Source of the DNA: Clostridia bacterium
GTDB taxonomy: Bacteria; Bacillota; Clostridia; Oscillospirales; CAG-272
DNA: 64,000 nt
Direction: 5' to 3'
NCBI GenBank assembly: GCA_017503325.1
Contig: JAFVTI010000034.1
Location: 29,840-93,839, forward strand
Positions within the stretch are counted from its first letter, which is position 1. Each line of letters opens with the position of its first letter. Both the position numbers and the translations under genes were made by a program. Positions 20,429-44,818 of the stretch are shown piece by piece. The notes beneath the pieces were generated by a model that made no database searches, had not been told where the DNA came from, and was given only the letters and a program-made list of their open reading frames with translations.

Positions 20429-21219
20429 AACTTCTCCTTCCTCAATACGTCCAAAATATGATTGGTCGCGCCCACCATATCGGGGCGTTCGCAAATGCTC
20501 AGGTGATATTTCATGTAAAGCGCGAAGGTCTCTTGATCCATGGCGTCCACCTTGTCGCCAATGTAGCGCGTCAGCATATCCGCGCCCACGTAATGCAACC
20601 GCTGTACGGGCAGGGGAGATACCAGCGCGTCAACGTCCTCCTTGCGGTACAGGGCAAAGATCTCGGCGGGTGTGGAGCTCAGCGCAAAGGTGTCGTAATC
20701 GATCAGATCCTTGTATTGCGGATCGTGAATACCACCGCGCGCAAAGCAGAATTGGTAGACCGTCATGTCGCTGTTGCAGTATGCGACAAAGACCGTGCCA
20801 CCCGGGCGGGTCAAGCGCACTGCCTCGCTAAGCGCTGCCTGCTTATCCTCGTCGGCGTAGAGGTGATACATGGGGCCAAGCAGCAGCGTGACGTCATATG
20901 TGTCCGAGGGGAAGTCGGAAAGGTCAATGGCGTCGCCCTGCGAGATCGAGATGCTTTCGCCCTCTTTGGTGTTGCGCATAAAGGCCTCGATATTGCACTC
21001 CATCAGCTCCACGGCAACCACGGAGTACCCCTTTTGCGCAAAATAATGCGAATAGCGTCCCGTGCCCGCGCCGATCTCCAGAATGGTCATGCCGGGCTTT
21101 AAGTATTTTTCAATATAGTGTACGGTGGTCAGAAATTCCACTGAGCCGTGCTGCGAGCCGAGTCGCGCGTGCTCGTCGTGGCTTTCATAGTAGTTTTTGA
21201 GTGCTTCCAATCTTTCCAT
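20425..21219 (-). CDS. Class I SAM-dependent methyltransferase
   Basis: ILEIGAGTGRYS and LLLGPMYHL; RBS GGAGG. Confidence 0.92.
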   Translation of the reverse strand: MERLEALKNYYESHDEHARLGSQHGSVEFLTTVHYIEKYLKPGMTILEIGAGTGRYSHYFAQKGYSVVAVELMECNIEAFMRNTKEGESISISQGDAIDLSDFPSDTYDVTLLLGPMYHLYADEDKQAALSEAVRLTRPGGTVFVAYCNSDMTVYQFCFARGGIHDPQYKDLIDYDTFALSSTPAEIFALYRKEDVDALVSPLPVQRLHYVGADMLTRYIGDKVDAMDQETFALYMKYHLSICERPDMVGATNHILDVLRKEKL

Positions 21220-28732: not shown

Positions 28733-28827
28733 GGCTGTTGGGGTGTTATGTGAAGAAATCCACTCCGTTCTTTTTGAGCAAGGAGCTGCAAAGAAGAACA
28801 TATTTGCTTCGCAAATTAAACAGCGTG

Positions 28828-34603: not shown

Positions 34604-35044
34604 TCAACCGTTGTTTTGAAGATGCGCCAAAAGCTTTTTCATGGCCTCGCTGTAGCTGTCAAAGCCAAGACCTGTCACGCGCACCACGCATACGGGGGTG
34701 ACGTAAGAAATATGACGAAATGCCTCGCGGCTGTCCACGTCAGATAAGTGTACCTCGGCCGAGGGGATCTCCACGGCGGCAATCGCGTCGGCAATGGCCA
34801 CGCTTGTGTGCGTGTAAGCGGCGGGGTTGATCACAATGCCGTCGTATTTGCCAAGCGCGTCCTGAATGGCGTCCACGATCACGCCCTCGTGATTGGTCTG
34901 CATGATGTCGACCTCAATGCCAAGCGCGGCGGCGGTTGCCTTGATATGCTCGCAAAGCGCGGCGTAGGACTTGTTGCCGTAAATGGCGGGCTCACGACGG
35001 CCAAGCAGGTTGAGATTGGGGCCGTTGATGACTAAAAACTTCAT
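34604..35044 (-). CDS. aroQ: Type II 3-dehydroquinate dehydratase
   Basis: INGPNLNLLG-REP--YG, INPAAYTHTS and EVHLS. Confidence 0.96.
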   Translation of the reverse strand: MKFLVINGPNLNLLGRREPAIYGNKSYAALCEHIKATAAALGIEVDIMQTNHEGVIVDAIQDALGKYDGIVINPAAYTHTSVAIADAIAAVEIPSAEVHLSDVDSREAFRHISYVTPVCVVRVTGLGFDSYSEAMKKLLAHLQNNG

Positions 35045-36267
35045 AAAATTACCTCCAAAATGCGTGCGGCAACCGCTTCGGGTGTGCCATCGTTGGGGAT
35101 TATGGTATCTGCAAATGCACGGTAGAGCGGCTCGCGGATGCGGTACATATCGGCAAGCTTATTTGCCTGTGAGAGCGGTCTGCCGTCGCAGGGGAGATCT
35201 TGCAGCGGACGTGTCAGCCAAACGACCGTACCGTTTTGCTCCAGCGGGTACCGGTTTTCGGGGCGGGTCACAACACCGCCGCCCGTGGCGATGATCTGCC
35301 CGTGAGCGGCACCCACCTCGCAGACGACTTGGTGCTCGATGGCGCGAAACGTATTCTCGCCATCGTCAGCAAAAATCTCGGGGATGGATTTGCCCGCCTT
35401 TTGCACGATCAGCGCGTCGGTGTCCACGAATTTCTTGCCCGTCAGGGTCGCAAGTATTGCACCGATGGTGGATTTGCCGCAGCCCGGCATGCCGATCAGT
35501 ACGATATTTGCGCTCTCGGCTGCAAAGGTGCGCACGATGCGCTCGATCTGCGCGGTGTCCACGGGTGTGCCTGTAAAGCGCTCGTGTCCCGCAGCCGCCT
35601 GCGCGACCAGCATGGAAAGACCGTTGGTACAGGGAATGCCAAGCTGCTCGGCTTGCGCCAAGAATGCGGTGCGCGCGGGATTGTAGATCATGTCCGCCGC
35701 GCCGCAAAGATGCGGGAATTGGGTAAGATCCACAGGTGAGATGCCCGATTTCGGGTACATGCCCACGGGCGTGCAGTTGATGATGACCTGGGCGTCGCCG
35801 TGCAGGCTGTATACGTTGTCGTAATTGACCTCTCCCGAGCGCGAAACGATGACCACCTCGGCAGCGTCCGCATCACGCGCGACCGCAACTGCTGTCTTGG
35901 ATGCACCGCCCGAGCCAAGGATCAGTACCTTTTTGCCTGCAAGAGCAATGCCTGCGGACGAAAGCGCATAGGAAAAGCCGAAATAGTCGGTGTTGTCGCC
36001 AAGCAAGGTGCCGTCCGCACGACGCGTGACGGTGTTGACCGCGCCCAGCTTCTCGGCAGCAGGGGTCAGCGCGTCAAGGAAAGGGATCACGACTTGCTTA
36101 TATGGAATTGTCACGTTCATACCCACATAATCGCCGTGTTTGACAAACTCTCCCACCTCGTCGGGAGCAAGCTCCTTCAAGGTGTAGTCGGGATTGCCCA
36201 GCATGGCGTGGATCTGGGGCGAAAAGCTGTGCGAGAGATGCTCGCCGATTAAGTAAAAATGGCTCAT
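35041..36267 (-). CDS. aroE: Shikimate dehydrogenase-shikimate kinase fusion (AroE-AroK)
   Basis: HSFSP-IH, NVTIPYK, NTD and GSGG, then IGMPGCGKST, ATGGG and RPL. Confidence 0.93.
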   Translation of the reverse strand: MSHFYLIGEHLSHSFSPQIHAMLGNPDYTLKELAPDEVGEFVKHGDYVGMNVTIPYKQVVIPFLDALTPAAEKLGAVNTVTRRADGTLLGDNTDYFGFSYALSSAGIALAGKKVLILGSGGASKTAVAVARDADAAEVVIVSRSGEVNYDNVYSLHGDAQVIINCTPVGMYPKSGISPVDLTQFPHLCGAADMIYNPARTAFLAQAEQLGIPCTNGLSMLVAQAAAGHERFTGTPVDTAQIERIVRTFAAESANIVLIGMPGCGKSTIGAILATLTGKKFVDTDALIVQKAGKSIPEIFADDGENTFRAIEHQVVCEVGAAHGQIIATGGGVVTRPENRYPLEQNGTVVWLTRPLQDLPCDGRPLSQANKLADMYRIREPLYRAFADTIIPNDGTPEAVAARILEVIL

Positions 36268-36417
36268 ATCAATTTCCATGCCGCCTTTGGCGGCTCAAAT
36301 AGTGATGGAAACTTCACCGTGGAGCTTTGCTCCAAAAATGGGCCGAGACCCATTTTTAGGTGAAGTTTATGCGTGAATGGTTGCGTATAAAGGAATATCA
36401 CGTGAACTTTCACGCTA
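36262..36417 (-). mobile_element. 156-bp structured intergenic element (family E), copy 1
   Basis: 153/156 identical to 43610-43765 in inverted orientation; nested hairpins; runs from the upstream TAG to the downstream ATGAGC. Confidence 0.75.
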
Positions 36418-37248
36418 GAACTCCATGAGTGCGGGGATTGCCCTGTAAGGGAAGGATGCGCGCTGATCGGATGTCAACAAGTGCTCGGCCTGCAGCAGCG
36501 CGTAAGCAAAATTGACTTCAATATCGTTTGCGGTGCGGTCGAAGGCAAATTCGCCGCATTGTGCATAGTCGAGATCGCTGTTGCGCTTGCCTGTAAAGCG
36601 TTGGCGGTTGTAAAGAATTTTGGCAATATTGAGGCGCGTGCTGCCCTCGTTTCTGCTGACTGTGGCAACGTATGCGGGGGCACTGTCGGCATACAGGCAG
36701 CACTTTCTGTGCCCGCCCTCTTCAAAGTATTCAAGAAACGTGTAGCAAAGGTCGCAGAGCGAGGCGGGAGATACCTTGATCTTATCTTCCCCGACAAGTG
36801 CGTCCGCATCGTCCTCTTCAAAGGAGGGATTGCCAAAGCACAGGTAAAGATCCCCGTCAATCGCTTCGATTGTCATCTCGGGCGAGGAAATGCTGTACTT
36901 GCGGCGCAGGGCGTCGCAAGCCTCGGTATAAGCCGAGTCGGAAAGCTCGTAGGGCGTGATCTCACCCTCGATCTGCTCGGCACAAAGCAGAGCACACAGG
37001 CGTGTATTGAATTTGGACTTGCTCTCCAAAAACATCTTATTGCTCTTGAAAAAGGCCGCACCCTTTTCGGTCAGCGCGTATCCTTCGATATATCCGCCTG
37101 CGCAAAGCTTGCCGAGAGAAAAGGCAAGCGCACCTTTTGAGAGCGGATAGGGCAGAGAGGCGCAAGCGGCCTCCAAGAGCGCATCAAGCGCGGTCTTTTT
37201 GTCGCGAATGGCGGCAAGCACCTTGTAATCAATGACTGTATAAAACAT
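36415..37248 (-). CDS. Hypothetical protein with possible N-terminal winged helix, inside the aro operon
   Basis: 277-aa ORF, RBS AAGGGGG directly after the aroC stop; L---GYI--Y-LT-KG wHTH-like segment. Confidence 0.75.
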   Translation of the reverse strand: MFYTVIDYKVLAAIRDKKTALDALLEAACASLPYPLSKGALAFSLGKLCAGGYIEGYALTEKGAAFFKSNKMFLESKSKFNTRLCALLCAEQIEGEITPYELSDSAYTEACDALRRKYSISSPEMTIEAIDGDLYLCFGNPSFEEDDADALVGEDKIKVSPASLCDLCYTFLEYFEEGGHRKCCLYADSAPAYVATVSRNEGSTRLNIAKILYNRQRFTGKRNSDLDYAQCGEFAFDRTANDIEVNFAYALLQAEHLLTSDQRASFPYRAIPALMEF

Positions 37249-37257
37249 AAAGCCCCC

Positions 37258-38343
37258 TTATTCGTCAAGCAGAAGATCGACCATGGCAAGTGCTGCCGCA
37301 GCCTCCACAACGGGTACTGCGCGGGGCACAATGCAGGGGTCGTGTCTGCCCTTGATTTGCAGCTTGGTATTTTCCATGCGGGAGCAGCTGATGCTGTCCT
37401 GTTCCTTGGCGATCGAGGGCGTGGGCTTGATGGCCACCGTGAACAGAATGGGCATGCCATAAGTCATGCCGCCAAGTATGCCTCCTGCGAAATTGGTGGC
37501 GGTATAGATATCGGAGCCGTATGGCAGGATCAGGATGGGATCGTTATTCTCCGAGCCGCGCATTTCGGCAACGGCAAAGCCTGCGCCAAACGAAATGCCC
37601 TTGACTGCAGGAATGCCCCACACAGCCTCGGAGATGGCACTTTCCACCGAGCGGAACATGTGCTCGCCAAGGCCCGCGGGCACGCCCACGATCTTGCATT
37701 CGATCGTGCCGCCCACCGAGTCGCCATCGGCGCGCGCGTCCGCAATGATTTGCTTCATCTGCTCGCCTGCTGCCATGTCAAGCACGGGAAAATCGGGATC
37801 AGCATAAGCGTCAAACGTGCTGCCCACGGGATCGTAAGGCGTATCGCACACACCGCCGATACACAGCGCGTGCGCGCCGATGCGGATGCCCTTGGTGGCA
37901 AGGTATTGCAGGCAGATGCCGCCCGCTACGCACATAAGTGCGGTCAAGCGTCCCGAAAAGTGTCCGCCGCCGCGCAGATCCACCGCGTCACCGTACTTCA
38001 GTCGCGCGGCAAGATCGGCGTGGCCGGGACGGGGAACGTCGAAATCATAGTCCTGTGAGCGGGTGTTGGTGTTGTAAATGACCGCCTCGATGGGCGAGCC
38101 GTCTGTATAAAGCAAGCCGTCCGCGCCCTGTGTCATGCCGCTTTTGAAGTGCGGCTGATCGGCTTCTTTGCGCGGGGTGGACCAAGCGTTCTGCCCGGGG
38201 GCGCGACGCGCAAGGAAGGCCTGCAGCACGGTCATGTCTACGGCAATGCCTGCGGGCAAACCCGAGAGCGTCATGGAGATCTCGGGGTCGTGCGAGCCGC
38301 CGCGGATGTCCAAGCGAATATTTTTTCCGTAAGGATGGGGCAT
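37258..38343 (-). CDS. aroC: Chorismate synthase
   Basis: RPGHAD, GGGHFSGRLTA, KPTPSI and GRHDPCIVPRA. Confidence 0.97.
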   Translation of the reverse strand: MPHPYGKNIRLDIRGGSHDPEISMTLSGLPAGIAVDMTVLQAFLARRAPGQNAWSTPRKEADQPHFKSGMTQGADGLLYTDGSPIEAVIYNTNTRSQDYDFDVPRPGHADLAARLKYGDAVDLRGGGHFSGRLTALMCVAGGICLQYLATKGIRIGAHALCIGGVCDTPYDPVGSTFDAYADPDFPVLDMAAGEQMKQIIADARADGDSVGGTIECKIVGVPAGLGEHMFRSVESAISEAVWGIPAVKGISFGAGFAVAEMRGSENNDPILILPYGSDIYTATNFAGGILGGMTYGMPILFTVAIKPTPSIAKEQDSISCSRMENTKLQIKGRHDPCIVPRAVPVVEAAAALAMVDLLLDE

Positions 38344-38355
38344 AAAAAGCTCCTT

Positions 38356-39615
38356 TCAGTGTGTTTGGCAGAGCAGGTCAAGCTGCTCCCAGAAGGTGGG
38401 GTAGGATTTGGCCACCGCCTGTGCGCCCTCGATGGTAACGGGGGCTTGGCAGCCAAGCGCGGCAACCGCAGCGGTCATGGCGATGCGGTGGTCACCGTAT
38501 GCGTCCACAAAGCCGCCTGAAAGCGCGGGCTTGCCCACAATGACAAGACCGTCGTCGGTCTCTCGGACGTCTGCACCAAGAGCCGTCAGTACAGCCGTGG
38601 TGGTGGCAAGGCGGTCGGATTCCTTGATGCGAAGCCGTGCCGCCCCCGTAATGCGTGTCGTGCCCTCGGCTAAAGCGGCGGTTGCCGCGATCACGGGCAC
38701 GAGATCGGGAATGTTTGCCGCGTTCAGGGCAATGCCGCGTAATGGTGCGGGCGTGACCGTGATTGCGTTTTCGCGCACCTCGATTTGTGCACCCATATCC
38801 GAAAGCACCGACAAGATGGCCTTATCTCCTTGGCCGGATGCGGTATCAAGACCGGTCACGGTCAAGGGGTGCTTGCCCACAGCACCCATGCAAAGCCAGG
38901 GCGCTGCGCCCGACCAGTCGCCGCCCACGGTAAGCGTGCCGGGCGAGGTAAAGCGTGCGTGCGCGGGAATCGTCAGCACGCCGTCCTGCTCCCTGACCGC
39001 AATGCCAAAGGCGGCAAGGGCGGATAGCGTCATGTCAAGATAAGGGCGTGATTCGATCTTTCCGATCAAGCGGATGGTCGCGGGAGTATCGAGATCAAGC
39101 AGCGGGAGCGCGAAGAGCAGACCGCTGACAAATTGCGAGGAAATACCCCCGACAATGGAAAAATCGTTGCCGGAAATTTTGCCCGATACCTCCAAAGGGT
39201 TTGAACCTTTTGGAGAGAGAGTCGCGCCGTGCTCCGAGAGCAGCGTATCAAGAGGCGAGAGCGGGCGCGCGGGCAGCCTGCCGTGCAGGTGCAGCTGTGC
39301 TTTTGTGCCCAGCGCACAGATCACGGGCAAAAGAAAGCGCAGGGTAGAGCCGGATTCGCCGCAATCCATGGTGGCGGTGTCCGGGATATTCTTTATGGGT
39401 GTGACGTCAAAGCCGTCTTGCGTGCGCTCGATGGATGCACCCATCGCGCAAAGGCAGGAGATGGTGGCGTCAATGTCGTCGTTGGAGGCCGCGCACACAA
39501 TATGCGTGGGCATGTCTGCGAGGGCGGCGCAGATCAGGTATCTGTGCGCCTCGGACTTGGAAGGAAACGAGGGAAGCGTGCCGCGCGGTGCGGGGGTGTG
39601 AAGCGTTACTTGCAT
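38356..39615 (-). CDS. aroA: 3-phosphoshikimate 1-carboxyvinyltransferase
   Basis: PSKS-AHR, CGESGSTLRF, SSQFVSGLL, R-KESDR and DHRIAM. Confidence 0.97.
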   Translation of the reverse strand: MQVTLHTPAPRGTLPSFPSKSEAHRYLICAALADMPTHIVCAASNDDIDATISCLCAMGASIERTQDGFDVTPIKNIPDTATMDCGESGSTLRFLLPVICALGTKAQLHLHGRLPARPLSPLDTLLSEHGATLSPKGSNPLEVSGKISGNDFSIVGGISSQFVSGLLFALPLLDLDTPATIRLIGKIESRPYLDMTLSALAAFGIAVREQDGVLTIPAHARFTSPGTLTVGGDWSGAAPWLCMGAVGKHPLTVTGLDTASGQGDKAILSVLSDMGAQIEVRENAITVTPAPLRGIALNAANIPDLVPVIAATAALAEGTTRITGAARLRIKESDRLATTTAVLTALGADVRETDDGLVIVGKPALSGGFVDAYGDHRIAMTAAVAALGCQAPVTIEGAQAVAKSYPTFWEQLDLLCQTH

Positions 39616-39626
39616 AGCGCACCTCT

Positions 39627-40679
39627 TCAGGCAAGACCCTTGGCAAACCAAGTGCCAACGTCCGCAGCGGGAATTTTGCAAAGACGGCTGTCCCCGATGG
39701 CGTAAGGCACGACCAGCGTGATGCTGCCACCCGCGCGCTTTTTGTCGGAAAGCGCGGCCTTGGCCAACTCGTCTGCGCCGAAATCGCAGGAAACGGGCAA
39801 GCCGAGCTGCTTTGTCAAAGAGAGCAGCTCGTCAAGGTCAGCGGTAGGGCAAAGTCCCTGTGCCACGGCCGCACGCATGATGGTCACGGTGCCGATTGCT
39901 ACCGCAGAACCGTGCGAAATTTGGAAATTGGAGCATTTTTCAATCGCGTGCGCCACCGTATGCCCAAGGTTGAGCAGCTGGCGCATCCCGGTGTCAAATT
40001 CGTCCTTTTCCACCACGTCGCGCTTGTTTTGCACGCAGCGCGCGATGATCTGCTCGGATGCGGGCGAGATGCCGTCCTCCAGCATCGAGAAAAGCGCACG
40101 GTCGTTGATCACACCGTATTTGATCACCTCGGCGCAACTGTCCGCAAAGATCTCGGGCGGCAGAGACGAGAGCGTGTCGGGGTCACAGATCACAAGGCGG
40201 GGCTGATAGAATGCGCCCGCCAAATTTTTACCCGCGTCCAGATTGACCGCGGTCTTGCCGCCCACAGAGGAATCCACGCAGGCAAGCAGCGTGGTGGGAA
40301 TTTGCACAAAGGGAATGCCGCGCAAATAGACCGAGGCGCAAAAGCCGCAAAGGTCGCCTACCACGCCGCCGCCAAGCGCAAACATGGCGTCGGTACGCGT
40401 GTATTTGTGCTCTGCCAGGTGCTCAAGCAAGGCACCCAGCGTACCAAGCGATTTGGAGCCCTCGCCGTGCGGCACCACGTACACCTCGGGCACAAAGCCG
40501 GCTGCCGTCAAGGAGGCGGACAACGCGTTTGCATACAGGGGTGCTACGTGATCGTCGGTCAGGATCAGCGCACGGCAGGGGGAGAGCACCTCTTTTGTAA
40601 GCTCACCCGCGCGCGCAAACAGACCCTTGCCCACCAGCACGTCGTATTTTGTTGAAGCGTTTACTTGGATGGTGATCAT
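39627..40679 (-). CDS. aroB: 3-dehydroquinate synthase
   Basis: GGGVVGD, PTTLLA-VDSSVGGKT and LNLGHT. Confidence 0.97.
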   Translation of the reverse strand: MITIQVNASTKYDVLVGKGLFARAGELTKEVLSPCRALILTDDHVAPLYANALSASLTAAGFVPEVYVVPHGEGSKSLGTLGALLEHLAEHKYTRTDAMFALGGGVVGDLCGFCASVYLRGIPFVQIPTTLLACVDSSVGGKTAVNLDAGKNLAGAFYQPRLVICDPDTLSSLPPEIFADSCAEVIKYGVINDRALFSMLEDGISPASEQIIARCVQNKRDVVEKDEFDTGMRQLLNLGHTVAHAIEKCSNFQISHGSAVAIGTVTIMRAAVAQGLCPTADLDELLSLTKQLGLPVSCDFGADELAKAALSDKKRAGGSITLVVPYAIGDSRLCKIPAADVGTWFAKGLA

Positions 40680-41527
40680 TTGCTCGTCTTCCTTCCGTCA
40701 ATCTCTTCCTTAGCCACTCTGCCCTCGGCCAAAAGCTTTCGCAGGGTGTCTTTGTCTTTCGCCTCTATGGCGTCGCGGTATTCGGTCAGGGACGCGATCA
40801 AAGCGTCTATCTCATCAAGCAGGGGCTCGCTGTTTTGCAAAAAAAGCTCGCTCCACATATATTCGTTCAGCCATGCCACGCGGGTCATATCCTTGTAGCT
40901 GCCTGCCGAAAAGCCCTTGTGCGCGCGAGCGGTGGGGCTTTTGACGTAGGCGTTGGATACCACGTGTGCAAGCTGCGAGGTAAAGGCGATCATGCGGTCG
41001 TGCTCCTTGGCGGTGCTGACTGTAATCGAGCCAAATCCCATAGGGGAAAGCGTGTCCTTGACGCGGCCCAAGAGGGCAATGTCCTCGTAGGTGGGGGGCA
41101 CGATGACCATGGGCGCGCCCGCAAACATGTTGGCGCGTGTGTATTTGATGCCCGAATTGTGCGTGCCCGCCATGGGGTGGCCGCCCACAAAGCAAAAGCC
41201 GTATTGCTTTGCCAGGGAAAATCCAACCTCACACACCTGCTCCTTGACGCCGCAAAGATCCATGAGGATACAGTCCTTGGAGAGCAAGGGGGCGATTTGC
41301 TGCATGTATGCAACAGAGGCATCGGGGTAGAGTGCGACCAAGACAAGGTCGCATTCGGGCAGCGTTGTCTCGTCCAAGGTGGCGTCGATCATGCCCGAGA
41401 GCAGCGCGTAGCTTTGCGAGGTGGGGTCTTTGTCATAGCCCAGAACGCGGATTTCGGGCGCGTTTTGTTTATAAGCCTTGGCGGCAGATCCGCCGATCAG
41501 TCCAAGGCCGCAGATTCCAACTGTCAT
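40676..41527 (-). CDS. tyrA: Prephenate dehydrogenase
   Basis: GLGLIGGS, GGHPMAG, HD--IA-TSQL-H and D-TRVA. Confidence 0.93.
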   Translation of the reverse strand: MTVGICGLGLIGGSAAKAYKQNAPEIRVLGYDKDPTSQSYALLSGMIDATLDETTLPECDLVLVALYPDASVAYMQQIAPLLSKDCILMDLCGVKEQVCEVGFSLAKQYGFCFVGGHPMAGTHNSGIKYTRANMFAGAPMVIVPPTYEDIALLGRVKDTLSPMGFGSITVSTAKEHDRMIAFTSQLAHVVSNAYVKSPTARAHKGFSAGSYKDMTRVAWLNEYMWSELFLQNSEPLLDEIDALIASLTEYRDAIEAKDKDTLRKLLAEGRVAKEEIDGRKTSK

Positions 41528-41542
41528 AAAGGGGCTCCTTGA

Positions 41543-42556
41543 TCAGTGCTCGATATCGGTAATGGCGTCCAGCACAAGGCGTACGTGACGCATGGTCTTG
41601 TCAAATTGCTCGGGGGTCAGCGATTGCGCACCGTCGCACATGGCATGCACGGGATCGTTGTGCACCTCAATCATCAGTCCGTCCGCGCCTGCGGCAGCGG
41701 CAGCCAATGCCATGGGCTCAACAAGCTTTGCAGAGCCGGTTGCGTGGCTGGGGTCTACGATCACGGGTAGGTGAGAAAGCTCGTGCAGCACGGGCACGGC
41801 CGAGAGATCCAGCGTATTGCGCGTATAGGTCTCAAAGGTGCGGATGCCGCGTTCACAGAGAATCACGTTTTCATTGCCGCCTGCCATGATGTATTCGGCA
41901 GACATGAGAAACTCCTTGAGCGTAGCCGCAAGACCGCGCTTGAGCAGGATTGTCTTTTGCGTTTTGCCAAGCTCCTTGAGCAGCTCAAAATTCTGCATGT
42001 TGCGCGCGCCCACCTGAATCACGTCCACCTCTTCAAACATGGGCAGGTGGTTTGCGTTCATGATTTCGGAAACAATGGGGAGTCCGGTCTCACGCTTTGC
42101 GTGCAGCAAGATCTCAATGCCGTCCGCCTTGAGTCCCTGGAAATCGTAAGGAGAGGTGCGGGGCTTGAAAGCACCGCCGCGCAGCATGGTCGCACCGCTT
42201 TGCTTGACCGCACGTGCAATCTCTGCCACCTGCTCCTCGCTCTCCACCGAGCAAGGGCCTGCGATCACGGCAAAGTGGCCGTCACCCACCAGGGTGTCGC
42301 CCGCACGGATGACGCTGTTGTCGGGGTGGAATTTTCTGTTGGCACTCTTGAAGGGCTCGCTGATCCGCTTGACCGTCTCCACGTAGGAAAGGCTGCCCAA
42401 AAGATCCTCGTCAATGCGTGTGGTATCGCCCACAAGACCCACGATGGTCTGGTATCGACCGGTCGAGAGGTGAACGGTCAGCCCCTGGGAGCGGATCCAG
42501 TCGGCAAGGCTTTGGATTTGTTGTTCGGTAGCACCCGGTTTCAAAACGGCAATCAT
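41543..42556 (-). CDS. aroF: DAHP synthase (type I-beta)
   Basis: [25 protein letters not shown] and DPSHATG. Confidence 0.97.
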
Positions 42557-42593
42557 GGTAAGAGTCCTCCTTGGAAATGGTCTGCAAGATCAG

Positions 42594-42667
42594 AAAATAA
42601 AAAATACCGCAGCTTTTACTGCGGCGTGTCAGATTTTACATAAAAAACGAATGACATGGCAGCAAAA
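42594..42667 (-). terminator. Attenuator: terminator with overlapping antiterminator
   Basis: Terminator CCGCAG-TAAAAG-CTGCGG plus U-rich tract (42624-42594); alternative pairing TTTTGCTGC(42667-42659)/GCAGTAAAA(42622-42614). Confidence 0.75.
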
Positions 42668-42677
42668 ATCACCTTTA

Positions 42678-42734
42678 TTATCCGGCGTAGGCGTAATAAA
42701 GGAAGATATCGCTGTTTGCAAACGCGTGTTTCAT
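42678..42734 (-). CDS. Putative aro operon leader peptide MKHAFANSDIFLYYAYAG
   Basis: AAGGAG RBS; 18 codons with F-L-Y-Y-A-Y near the end; tandem TAA stops. Confidence 0.8.
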   Translation of the reverse strand: MKHAFANSDIFLYYAYAG

Positions 42735-42762
42735 GCAAATTCTCCTTATATTTTATACGATA

Positions 42763-42791
42763 AGTGTAGCACGCGCGGGGGCTTTTGTCAA
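42763..42791 (-). promoter_or_regulatory. sigmaA promoter of the aro operon
   Basis: TTGACA-17bp-TACACT with TG upstream of the -10. Confidence 0.7.
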
Positions 42792-42913
42792 GGGCGTTGG
42801 AGAAATTTCTTGCGTTTTTGTAGACAAAGCAAGCAATTTCTGTTATAATAAGACTATGGACAATCAAATTTTGAACGGATCATCCCAAAAAGAGATGGGA
42901 GCGGGAGGAATCT

Positions 42914-43612
42914 ATGTTTTATACCGCAATTTGTGACGACGAATCGGTCTTTTCCGAAAAGGCCAAGGCGTTGATCGACCAAATCCTTGACGAAAAGGGC
43001 ATTACGCACCGTACCGATTGCTTTTCTTCCACCGATGAATTGCAGGCGGCCATGCGCAAGTGCGACTATGCGCTGCTGCTTCTGGATATCGTCATGGATA
43101 AGCAAACGGGGTTGGAGTTTGCCACCGAGCTGCGCCGTGCGGGCAGCCGCGTCAATATTATTTTTATGACCTCCAGTGCAGAGTTTGCCCTGGATGCATA
43201 CGAGGTGTACCCCTTGACCTATCTTACCAAGCCGGTTGACCCCATCAAGCTGCGCAGAGCTTTGCAGATGTGCCTGGAAAAGATGGAAAAGCAGCCAGGA
43301 CTTGTCATCAACGACCGCAAGCTTGGGCAGGTCATGGTGGAATACGACGACATTCTGTACCTGGAGAGTCAGAAGCACGATATCGTGGTGTACGCCCGCG
43401 ACGGCCAGCAGTATACCTTTATGGGCAGCTTTGAGGCGTTTTGCGAAAAGCTGCCGACCGATATCTTTTTCCGTTGCCATCGCTCGTACAGCGTCAATCT
43501 GCGGCATACCGGCCGTATCAGCAACCGTGAGTATACCATGCGCAACGGGGCCGTGATCCCCATCTCGCGCACGCAGTATAAGCTGGCGTGTGACAAATTT
43601 GCAGGACTTTAG
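42914..43612 (+). CDS. LytTR family response regulator
   Basis: AICDDE, LLLDI-M, YLTKPV and FFRCHRSY-VNL. Confidence 0.93.
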   Translation: MFYTAICDDESVFSEKAKALIDQILDEKGITHRTDCFSSTDELQAAMRKCDYALLLLDIVMDKQTGLEFATELRRAGSRVNIIFMTSSAEFALDAYEVYPLTYLTKPVDPIKLRRALQMCLEKMEKQPGLVINDRKLGQVMVEYDDILYLESQKHDIVVYARDGQQYTFMGSFEAFCEKLPTDIFFRCHRSYSVNLRHTGRISNREYTMRNGAVIPISRTQYKLACDKFAGL

Positions 43613-43765
43613 CGTGAAAGTTCACGTTATATTCCTTTATACGCAACCATTCACGCATAAACTTCACCTAAAAATGGGTCTCGGCCCATTTTTGGAGCAA
43701 AGCTCCACGGTGAAGTTTCCATCACTATTTGAGCCGCCAAAGGCGGCATGGAGATTGACATGAGC
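43610..43765 (+). mobile_element. 156-bp structured intergenic element (family E), copy 2
   Basis: Matches copy 1; begins with the LytTR stop codon TAG and ends with GGAG-ATTGAC-ATGAGC of mutY. Confidence 0.75.
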
Positions 43766-44818
43766 TTGCCCAAATCAATGGTGCAGCCGCTGCTGATCTG
43801 GTATGCAGAGAACGCGCGAAAGCTGCCCTGGAGACAAGATATTACTCCGTATCGCGTATGGATTTCGGAGATCATGCTGCAGCAGACGCGCGTGGAGGCG
43901 GTTAAGCCGTATTTTGAACGCTTTATGCGCGAGCTGCCTGACGTCAAGTCCTTGGCAGAGGTGCCCGAGGAGCGGTTGCTCAAGCTGTGGGAGGGGCTGG
44001 GATACTACAGCCGCGCCCGCAATCTGCAAAAGGCGGCAAGGCAGGTGTGCGCCGAGTACGGCGGGGAATTGCCCACAGACCCCGCGCAGCTGCAAAGGCT
44101 TTGCGGCATTGGCGCGTATACCGCAGGCGCGATTGCGTCGATCGCGTTTGGCCGCAGGGCCCCCGCGGTGGACGGCAACGTCATGCGCGTCTGGGCAAGA
44201 CTGACGGCCGATGGGCGCGATATTCTGCAGCCCGCCGTGCAAAAAGATGCAAGAGAGGACGTGGCTGCCATCATTCCCGCAGATCAGGCAGGGGATTTTA
44301 CCCAGGCAATGATCGAGCTTGGCGCAACCGTCTGCGTGCCCGCAGGGGAGGCAAAGTGCGGCGTGTGCCCCTTGCAGGCGTTTTGCAAGGCTTTGTCCGA
44401 GGGCATGGTGGACGAGCTGCCCGTCAGATCCAAGGCAAAGGCCCGCAAGCGCATCGATATGACCGTGCTTCTCATCCACGACGGCAAGCACGTGCTGCTG
44501 CATAAAAGACCGGACACGGGGCTTTTGGCGGGTATGTACGAGTTTTATCAGACCGAGGGTGTCATGGATGCGGCGATGGCCGCGCAGCACGCAGGCGAGA
44601 TGGGATTTGAGGTGCAAGAGGTCAGCGAGCAAATTGCGGCAAAGCATATTTTTACGCACCTTGAATGGCACATGACGGGATATGCCGTGCGCGTGGCAAG
44701 CGTTGATACAGCGCCCGCGCATCTTTGTGCCGCCACAAAGGGAGAGATGGGCAGCACCTATCCCATTCCCGGTGCGCACCGTGTCTATCGGGAAAGAGCA
44801 GAGCAATTATTGAATTGA
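43760..44818 (+). CDS. mutY: A/G-specific adenine glycosylase
   Basis: WISEIMLQQTRV, WEGLGYYSRARNL, GIG-YTAGAIASIAF, VDGNV and C-x6-C-x2-C-x5-C. Confidence 0.96.
   Translation: MSLPKSMVQPLLIWYAENARKLPWRQDITPYRVWISEIMLQQTRVEAVKPYFERFMRELPDVKSLAEVPEERLLKLWEGLGYYSRARNLQKAARQVCAEYGGELPTDPAQLQRLCGIGAYTAGAIASIAFGRRAPAVDGNVMRVWARLTADGRDILQPAVQKDAREDVAAIIPADQAGDFTQAMIELGATVCVPAGEAKCGVCPLQAFCKALSEGMVDELPVRSKAKARKRIDMTVLLIHDGKHVLLHKRPDTGLLAGMYEFYQTEGVMDAAMAAQHAGEMGFEVQEVSEQIAAKHIFTHLEWHMTGYAVRVASVDTAPAHLCAATKGEMGSTYPIPGAHRVYRERAEQLLN

Follow-up and report, generated by a model that had tools for sequence, protein, structure and literature searches.

A structured interspersed repeat at translation start sites in a family of gut Clostridia

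Introduction

ERIC, Correia, BOX, RUP and SPRITE elements carry terminal inverted repeats, duplicate their targets, or both, and are found in either orientation. As a rule, small interspersed repeats persist where the damage is least, at gene ends and in convergent intergenic regions. In pneumococci, BOX, RUP and SPRITE are over-represented between convergent genes (PMC3049150). MIRUs, as described in PMC3184786, are 40–100 bp long, carry an open reading frame (ORF) and show tetranucleotide direct repeats at filled sites. The same source describes Neisseria REP2 and Borrelia IR as free of terminal inverted repeats, with internal stem-loops, lying directly 5' of genes and carrying a ribosome-binding site; REP2 also carries a promoter and an ATG (PMC3184786). 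Here we analyse a repeat of about 146 nt that occurs twice in a 64,000-nt stretch of DNA from an uncultured Clostridia bacterium (assembly GCA_017503325.1, contig JAFVTI010000034.1, positions 29,840 to 93,839; "the window" means this whole 64-kb stretch). This element does the opposite of the usual repeat: it sits in a gene's most sensitive bases and appears to survive by bringing replacement translation signals.

The element is specialised for translation start sites and is, as far as our searches reach, undescribed; it belongs with the bacterial interspersed non-autonomous repeats. We give a probability of about 80% to the reading that this is a mobile, non-autonomous element which spreads to translation-initiation regions and whose build makes insertion nearly neutral. 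A full-text literature search, with most subscription journals outside its coverage, returned no description of such an element. Rfam 15 gave no match at gathering score anywhere in the window, and in an E-value scan of the element the best hit (E-value 1.8; 14.6 bits against a 71-bit cut-off) was noise.

Results

Both window copies are insertions into intact gene junctions

Two segments of the window, 36262–36417 on the − strand (copy A, in an aro operon) and 43610–43765 on the + strand (copy B, between lytTR and mutY), align without gaps and with 3 mismatches over 156 positions. This realignment reproduces the 153/156 identity reported in an earlier note on this DNA. Identity is lost abruptly at both edges, at a TAG on the left and ATGAGC on the right, and the flanks of the two copies are unrelated; as the note had also recorded, the TAG ends both upstream ORFs. 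The parts of the two loci are as follows.

43610–43756, + strand: element copy B proper (TAGCGTG...GGAGATT), between lytTR and mutY; covariance-model score 187 bits.
36271–36417, − strand: element copy A proper, between an aro-operon ORF and an aroE-aroK fusion gene; covariance-model score 184.6 bits.
43750–43753, + strand: the element's own Shine-Dalgarno (SD) sequence, GGAG, 6 nt 5' of the mutY ATG; the native site has only AGGG upstream.
43757–43765, + strand: native flank GAC-ATG-AGC, outside the element; by comparison with empty sites, a remnant of the original TGA(T) stop region of lytTR plus the true mutY start at 43760.
42914–43612, + strand: upstream LytTR-type gene, whose stop is now the element TAG at 43610–43612.
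43760–44818, + strand: mutY, the downstream gene (HhH-GPD and NUDIX_4 by Pfam); orthologues are 70–88% identical.
36415–37248, − strand: upstream aro-operon ORF, whose stop is the element TAG at 36417–36415.
35044–36267, − strand: aroE-aroK fusion (shikimate dehydrogenase and shikimate kinase by Pfam), downstream of copy A; the true start is 36267, and relatives start at ATGAGC.

Orthologous junctions in related genomes lack the element. At lytTR-mutY it is present in none of 15 loci from 14 other genomes of the genus, and the three closest relatives read GCAGG(G/T)CTT TGA T ATG AGC where the window reads GCAGGACTT[TAGCGTG...GGCATGGAGAT]TGACATGAGC. At the aro junction it is absent from all five relatives searched, and one of them (genome G015) reads CTCATGGAGTTC TGA T ATGAGC, matching both flanks of copy A exactly. 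The earlier note had proposed looking for empty alleles at these two junctions, and related species thus supply them at both. Such clean empty sites mark both window copies as insertions, and their comparison with the filled sites indicates that about 146 nt were inserted with host bases neither lost nor duplicated, save one ambiguous T that lets copy B run from 43610 to 43755 or from 43611 to 43756.

The same comparison redraws the right edge of the element. Empty sites at both window loci read TGATATGAGC, so the TTGAT/TTGAC "end" and the ATGAGC are native flank; the earlier delimitation of the element as the whole stretch from stop codon to ATGAGC holds for the TAG and fails for the TTGAY-ATGAGC part. 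On the left, the element TAG now serves as stop codon in place of the displaced TGA, which leaves the ends of both upstream proteins unchanged (...AGL* and ...MEF*). The opening MEIDMS shared by two unrelated predicted proteins stems from the repeat, as had been proposed: an ATG within the element's own SD (cATGGAGattgacATGAGC) gives it, and the genes of relatives begin at the second ATG. ORF lists place the mutY start at 43748 and the aroE-aroK start at 36279, both inside the element SD, a false MEID extension, and the same start-calling error is one that gene callers will be expected to make at every copy.

Neither window copy is an artefact of assembly. Flank/element junctions of the two are spanned by contigs assembled from other public runs (X6 at 42421–43639; X7 at 43129–43638 and 36369–36660; X5 at 43729–43892), which also disposes of the concern the earlier note had raised. 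This cross-check used assembled contigs, which break inside the repeat. The contigs of the RNA run are 5–14% divergent.

Insertion polymorphism extends beyond these two sites. Of 27 element loci in relatives, 20 can be located in the window's own genome with their two flanks on a single contig; 19 of these (14 distinct sites) are empty there and one is filled. When the segment from AGCG to three bases past GGAG is removed from filled sites, filled and empty junctions align without gaps at 7 independent loci.

A third site in the window is touched by the repeat family. Near position 21219 (C8:51058–51062; contigs are labelled C, genomes G and loci L) lies an empty start site, TTTGGAGGAATTT-ATGGAAAGA, of a methyltransferase gene, and a same-genus relative has the element there (L037). 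Near 28822 (C8:58661) a motif scan, with no covariance-model match, picks up the words AGCGTGAAAGAG followed by GC-rich hairpins and a TTCGTGAA word, probably by chance or from something unrelated.

The element is placed to the nucleotide in front of start codons

Insertion follows the layout of the translation-initiation region. The element proper, of about 146 nt with ends AGCGUGAAAG...AUGGAGRUU, lies 3–4 nt 5' of the start codon and 3' of the native SD; the sense orientation noted earlier for the window copies holds across the repeat family without exception. Among 68 full distinct copies, 56 have the element's GGAG 6 nt from the next start codon; in 5 copies the distance is 5 nt, in 3 it is 7 nt and in 4 it is 8 nt. 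On the left, 63 of the 68 have an SD-like motif no more than 16 nt from the element, and 45 of these 63 have a GGAG 0–4 nt from it. A native SD-N(3-5)-NNN-ATG becomes SD-N(3-5)-[AGC GUG AAA ... AUGGAGRUU]-NNN-ATG, with the element's GUG in the exact former place of the start codon. Head-to-tail dimers have the junctions GGAGATT|AGCGTG and GGAGGATT|AGCGTG, which match what insertion 3 nt before the GUG of a resident copy would give.

This context recurs well outside the genus. In other genera a downstream ORF of at least 70 codons is present at 18 of 18 loci from 18 genera, and two high-copy genomes of other genera show the same context in 33 of 41 copies, 3 of the remaining 8 being internal tandem units. 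Most copies in the window's own genome lie between co-directional ORFs with the upstream stop 0–17 nt away; the exceptions are three copies in 5' leaders and two that abut a gene end followed by a terminator. The downstream proteins, 36 of 49 tested having Pfam hits, share no common function (MutY, AroE-AroK, MurG, UvrD, QueA, RimM, kinases, peptidases). Copies are oriented with the gene and not with the replication strand: those in the window point opposite ways at a distance of 7 kb, and GC skew on the element strand, a proxy in a draft genome, is positive for 9 of 16 copies in the own genome and negative for the other 7.

Of 64 copies, 28 have A directly 5' of the element, 23 have T, 8 have G and 5 have C, and upstream there is otherwise only the purine-rich SD. 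An enzyme-free route, in which microhomology recombination or template switching carries the element between initiation regions sharing SD...ATG(A), would account for one oddity that remains: the window copies are sisters, and each occupies a native TGATATGAGC site. It is also in keeping with the recurrence of TGAY-ATG at about 9 of some 50 independent loci, and with pairs at which the 3 nt before the ATG differ from the native site more than the other flank does. However, the flanks of closest sisters are no more alike than random (right, 4.6/9 against 3.64 ± 1.5; left, 3.9/10 against 4.7), and the left junction falls at a fixed element base rather than within SD microhomology. We regard this route as improbable.

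Position and tandem arrangement also bear on whether the element is itself translated. A translational-coupling cassette of the MIRU kind would be a mini-cistron overlapping its neighbours' stop and start codons, with the small ORF as the selected feature. In the window subfamily the GTG at element positions 5–7 does open 50 codons, closed either by a TGA that overlaps the downstream ATG (ATGA) or by the TAG of a following tandem unit; A stands at position +4 in 41 of 55 copies, and the MIRU-like traits of intercistronic sense position and tandem arrays of variable number are both present. The spanning ORF is not a property of the family, though: only 20 of 68 copies keep the frame open as far as the downstream ATG, 37 close it early, the 129-nt variants also have it closed, and in other genera it often ends after 2–3 codons. 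Substitutions, moreover, track base pairing and not codons, and a translated cassette is the least probable of the explanations we considered.

A dispersed family spans a third of the genera of one bacterial family

The window copies belong to a multi-copy repeat, and the earlier count of two was an understatement. About 15 full copies, and fragments besides, are present in the window's own genome, a 96.6% complete draft of 2.70 Mb in 54 contigs. A BLAST search of it with the 156 nt gives 17 matches, among them head-to-tail dimers on C26 and C37; further, divergent copies (at C39 and C34, and a dimer at C22) come from a profile search, and a covariance model built from 75 copies finds 23 matches. 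The searches that the note had suggested thus return a dispersed family, whose tabulated flanks mostly have an SD on the left and a start codon on the right.

Its distribution is broad within one bacterial family and nearly confined to it. All 15 other genomes of the genus searched by BLAST contain the repeat; among 9 other genera of the bacterial family BLAST gives weak matches in 2, and among 16 other families in none. With the covariance model, 30 of 100 genomes from the bacterial family, representing 30 of 97 genera, match; one genome has 28 scored matches, and the next highest have 26, 25, 19, 14, 13 and 12. Copies within a genome are 90–98% alike, while BLAST reaches other genera weakly at most (2 of 9). 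An exact-pattern scan of 185,579 species genomes found 62 loci, all in metagenome-assembled genomes titled Eubacteriales, Clostridia or Oscillospiraceae bacterium or uncultured Clostridium. Collections of phages, plasmids and viral contigs gave no match to the element.

Outside the bacterial family, 3 of 134 genomes of the same order match the covariance model, with one match each, one of them strong. The strong one (G147:C7:54870–55041, locus L195; 80.6 bits) is single in the genome of another family of the order and may reflect horizontal transfer.

Tandem copies vary in number between species. Upstream of a bcp-like peroxiredoxin gene, a tandem 129-nt variant is present in 3, 2 and 2 units at L046 (G004), L047 (G009) and L048 (G011), respectively, arrays that behave like a variable-number tandem repeat and in which the long-range stem P0 covaries (GCGCGAA/TTCGCGC).

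A compensated fold is conserved across genera

The element folds as a long-range stem, a three-way junction and a 3' hairpin, given here for copy B.

43612–43656, + strand: P0, a long-range stem GCGTGAA/TTCACGC (43612–43618 with 43650–43656) that closes a variable loop of about 30 nt; present in the minimum-free-energy fold.
43614–43616, + strand: decoy start codon GTG, within P0.
43659–43718, + strand: three-way junction of P1 (43659–43668/43709–43718), P2 (43670–43678/43685–43693) and P3 (43694–43698/43702–43706).
43733–43747, + strand: P4, the 3' hairpin GCCGCC-AAA-GGCGGC; 98% paired, and dispensable, being absent from the 129-nt variants at C22 and the bcp locus.

Thermodynamic and comparative evidence agree on this fold. 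The RNA minimum-free-energy structure has −62.3 kcal/mol (z −5.3; none of 200 shuffles as stable) and includes the core helices, GGAGC/GCTCC and GCCGCC/GGCGGC; a repeat search likewise finds the core helices AAACTTCACC/GGTGAAGTTT and AAAAATGGG/CCCATTTTT. In the 75-copy alignment 97.4% of cells in the proposed fold are paired, with 14 compensatory pairs against 2.5 ± 1.2 in shuffled alignments and 2–5 in slid controls. Across genera (20 sequences from 18 genomes) 94.1% of cells are paired against 75.8% when shuffled, and 28 of 37 pairs show compensatory change against 14 ± 2 shuffled and 8–15 in slid controls, in an alignment that was fitted to the covariance model and so leans towards structure. 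Compensatory change occurs across genera at every pair of P1, P2 and P3, and the unpaired motifs are invariant. Building the covariance model, as proposed in the note, therefore supported a fold, one that has no counterpart in Rfam.

One part of the structure first proposed did not survive. The core helices and the 3' hairpin stand, but the local 5' hairpin CGTGAA-AG-TTCACG is 87.9% paired in 75 copies with no compensatory change. P0 is 98.9% paired in the same copies, with six U-A to C-G switches, and its sequence is almost invariant across genera. In a 129-nt variant of the window's own genome all three core stems have changed in a compensatory manner and P4 is absent. Remnants in this genome comprise P0 only, P4 plus SD only, and P0 plus P4 plus SD; the retention of P4+SD or P0+P4+SD is as expected for the decay of a selfish insertion.

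A fold so conserved suggests that the element might be useful to its host. It could be a cis-acting RNA module acting on the downstream cistron, either on the initiation of its translation or on the processing or stability of its mRNA. It might, for example, cover part of the SD or shield this cistron from the one before it, and mobility would be only its route. The cross-genus compensatory changes and invariant unpaired motifs favour such a module, as do an orientation that always follows the gene, so that the element is presumably co-transcribed with it, the copies kept at orthologous loci in two or three species, and a possible SD-covering helix CAUCACUAU/AUGGAGAU that is 77% paired. That helix, however, shows no compensatory change beyond G.U, the downstream genes share no function, and sister species lack the element at most sites and show no sign of harm. 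Near-identical copies within one genome point instead to recent amplification, some remnants retain only the SD, and arrays of 2–3 units differ in number between species. We consider a host-useful module unlikely as the primary explanation. Against the portable cis-regulatory RNA that the earlier note offered as its second alternative stand the unrelated genes, the near-identical copies and the decay to SD-only remnants; it is a possible added property. A riboswitch or gene-specific leader would share the conserved covarying fold; the downstream genes here are not coherent, and positions are not stable, 14 sites filled in relatives being empty in this genome.

The resident Y1 transposases fit the element poorly

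The absence of inverted repeats and of target duplication, as first claimed, was borne out: only internal helices were found, and any duplication is at most 1 nt. A classical miniature inverted-repeat transposable element is set aside on the same grounds, a seed-6 repeat search having shown no end-to-end pairing and the mutY and aroE sites no duplicated bases beyond one ambiguous T.

Derivation from IS200/IS605, suggested in the earlier note from subterminal hairpins and a TTGAT/TTGAC end, is not supported. An IS200/IS605- or REP/RAYT-type derivative would move as single-stranded DNA by means of a hairpin-binding Y1 HUH transposase. Features of IS200/IS605, IS110, integron attC and RAYT motifs enter this reasoning as background. 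Such a derivative is compatible with the lack of terminal inverted repeats and target duplication and with stable hairpins, and the window's own genome does encode Y1 enzymes: one IS200-type TnpA (C23:27873–28229, 140 bits, with end hairpins of its own; a fragment of a second copy lies at the start of another contig, C26:5–151) and three RAYT-like genes (C17:87232–87792, C2:19237–19689 and C21:18310–18855), with RAYT-like homologues in 15 of 15 genus genomes. However, the IS200 ends are unrelated to the element, a search for TnpB (PF07282) in this 96.6% complete draft gave no hits, and none of the RAYT-like genes adjoins or is flanked by an element copy. Among 100 genomes of the bacterial family the element occurs in 30, a RAYT-like gene in 36 and both in 14, where chance alone would give 10.8; G055, G109 and G124, all of them high-copy carriers, are without a RAYT-like hit. 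Added to this are 5' and 3' hairpins that differ from each other, a dispensable P4, a variable 5' base, a TTGAY that is native flank, and no bias to one replication strand. We judge a Y1-mobilised origin very unlikely.

PATEs, the non-autonomous derivatives of IS200/IS605, can be compared hallmark by hallmark. Their two ends carry similar subterminal hairpins bound by one TnpA; here the local 5' hairpin is not conserved, the conserved 5' stem is unlike P4, and P4-less variants still form tandems. Their insertion falls on the 3' side of a fixed target of four or five nucleotides (TTAC or TTGAT, for example); here the 5' base varies, and TTGAY lies 3' of the element and is native. A third hallmark is an orientation tied to the replication strand; here GC skew is split +9/−7 and the window copies are opposed. 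As for an autonomous partner with the same ends, the only candidates in the 96.6% complete draft, the IS200 on C23 and the fragment on C26, differ in their end hairpins. Mobilisation by RAYT as a REP/REPIN was rejected on the near-chance co-occurrence (14 against 10.8) and the lack of copies flanking RAYT-like genes.

A separate repeat accounts better for those RAYT-like genes. The genome contains a second, unrelated REPIN-like repeat with inverted half-sites CTGGCGA..TCGCCCCTAC and GTAGGGGCGA..TCGCCAG, probably paired with the three RAYT-like Y1 genes. There are 50 half-sites in the genome (also at C52:77100–77240) and none in the window; 28 of the 50 lie within 400 nt of a contig end (for example C1 right and both ends of C8), so this repeat breaks the assembly.

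Discussion

The evidence from empty sites, 14 further polymorphic sites, constant sense orientation and an SD of its own upholds the first alternative of the earlier note, a non-autonomous mobile element at gene junctions that leaves translation intact. We propose that its anatomy makes insertion nearly neutral. The first bases, (U)AGC-GUG-AAA, replace NNN-AUG, so that the native SD then faces a decoy GUG locked in P0. UAG at the first position, in this genus, supplies a stop where the upstream gene's own had been displaced, as at lytTR and the aro ORF. The last bases, AUGGAGRUU, place a fresh SD 6 nt from the real AUG, and the middle folds as a compact, self-contained unit of P0, three-way junction and optional P4. 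The conserved fold and the invariant P0 and junction sequences may serve as a handle for trans-acting machinery, acting on RNA or on single-stranded DNA. Copies that lose recognition features would stop spreading and decay until the SD end needed by the host gene remains.

How start sites come to be chosen is a separate matter, and the insertion step itself is inferred. A spacing held so sharply at 6 nt, and a near lack of copies where they would do no harm, favour targeting by machinery; we put at about even odds that start sites are picked by the insertion process and not just filtered by selection. A novel mode of target choice, with recognition of SD, spacer and start codon and insertion, sense only, at a fixed nucleotide 3 nt before the start, by machinery outside the transposase families searched, whether guided by RNA, linked to transcripts or provided by the host, is a doubtful proposal that we put forward tentatively.

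Several observations weigh against a selfish mobile element. A search of the own genome, 96.6% complete, turned up no mobilising gene; reverse transcriptase and IS110 searches there gave nothing at or above cut-off, and two rve genes were found. No longer, autonomous copy was seen, and the ends of the one IS200-type gene and of the fragment of a second copy bear no relation to the element. Spacer length differs by 1–6 nt in 8 of some 15 independent pairs of filled and empty sites: insertion may not always be precise, or spacers may have diverged since. The bcp locus and the loci that map to own-genome sites C12, C49, C18 and C52 are filled across two or three species, which, together with the family-wide conserved fold, fits a host-useful RNA equally well. 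Wobble counts for the folding strand (G.U 19 against A.C 35, clustered by descent) do not single out the sense RNA. No empty allele of either window site appeared in the public-run contigs, among the 15 of 137 joints listed.

An element of this kind, conserved across a third of the genera of one Clostridia family, raises the questions of how a start site can be found at single-nucleotide precision, how mobilisation proceeds without transposase, inverted repeats or duplication, and how much structure initiation regions tolerate. It also has practical consequences. Gene callers are misled into false extensions such as MEIDM, and metagenome assemblies are broken or confused by it. As a natural portable "insulated RBS" (ribosome-binding site) module it may be of use, and its insertion polymorphisms offer markers for typing strains of an uncultured lineage of gut Clostridia.

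Comparison with described repeats places the element near known groups and inside none of them. It resembles ERIC, Correia, BOX, RUP and SPRITE in being short, structured, non-autonomous, multi-copy, presumably co-transcribed with genes and polymorphic between relatives; unlike them, it has no inverted repeats or duplication and lies almost only just 5' of start codons, in sense. With PATEs and REP/REPIN it shares the lack of terminal inverted repeats and of target duplication and a wealth of hairpins, and their defining features, where tested, are missing. In organisation it is nearest to MIRU and to REP2, compared here, like Borrelia IR, by published descriptions. Like MIRUs, it lies between co-directional operon genes and is oriented with them, forms head-to-tail arrays of varying number, shows empty and filled orthologous sites, and has ends that overlap the neighbours' stop and start codons. 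Unlike MIRUs as described, it is about 146 nt long with a covarying three-way junction, at most 1 nt of duplication, a through-ORF in 20 of 68 copies and its own SD at 6 nt, and there is no sequence relation. The likeness to REP2 and Borrelia IR lies in the missing terminal inverted repeats, the stem-loops and a ribosome-binding site directly 5' of genes. REP2 differs in its promoter and ATG and shares no sequence with the element: here no sigma-70-like promoter is predicted inside the element, the ATG is native to judge from empty sites, and most copies are intercistronic, behind a native SD.

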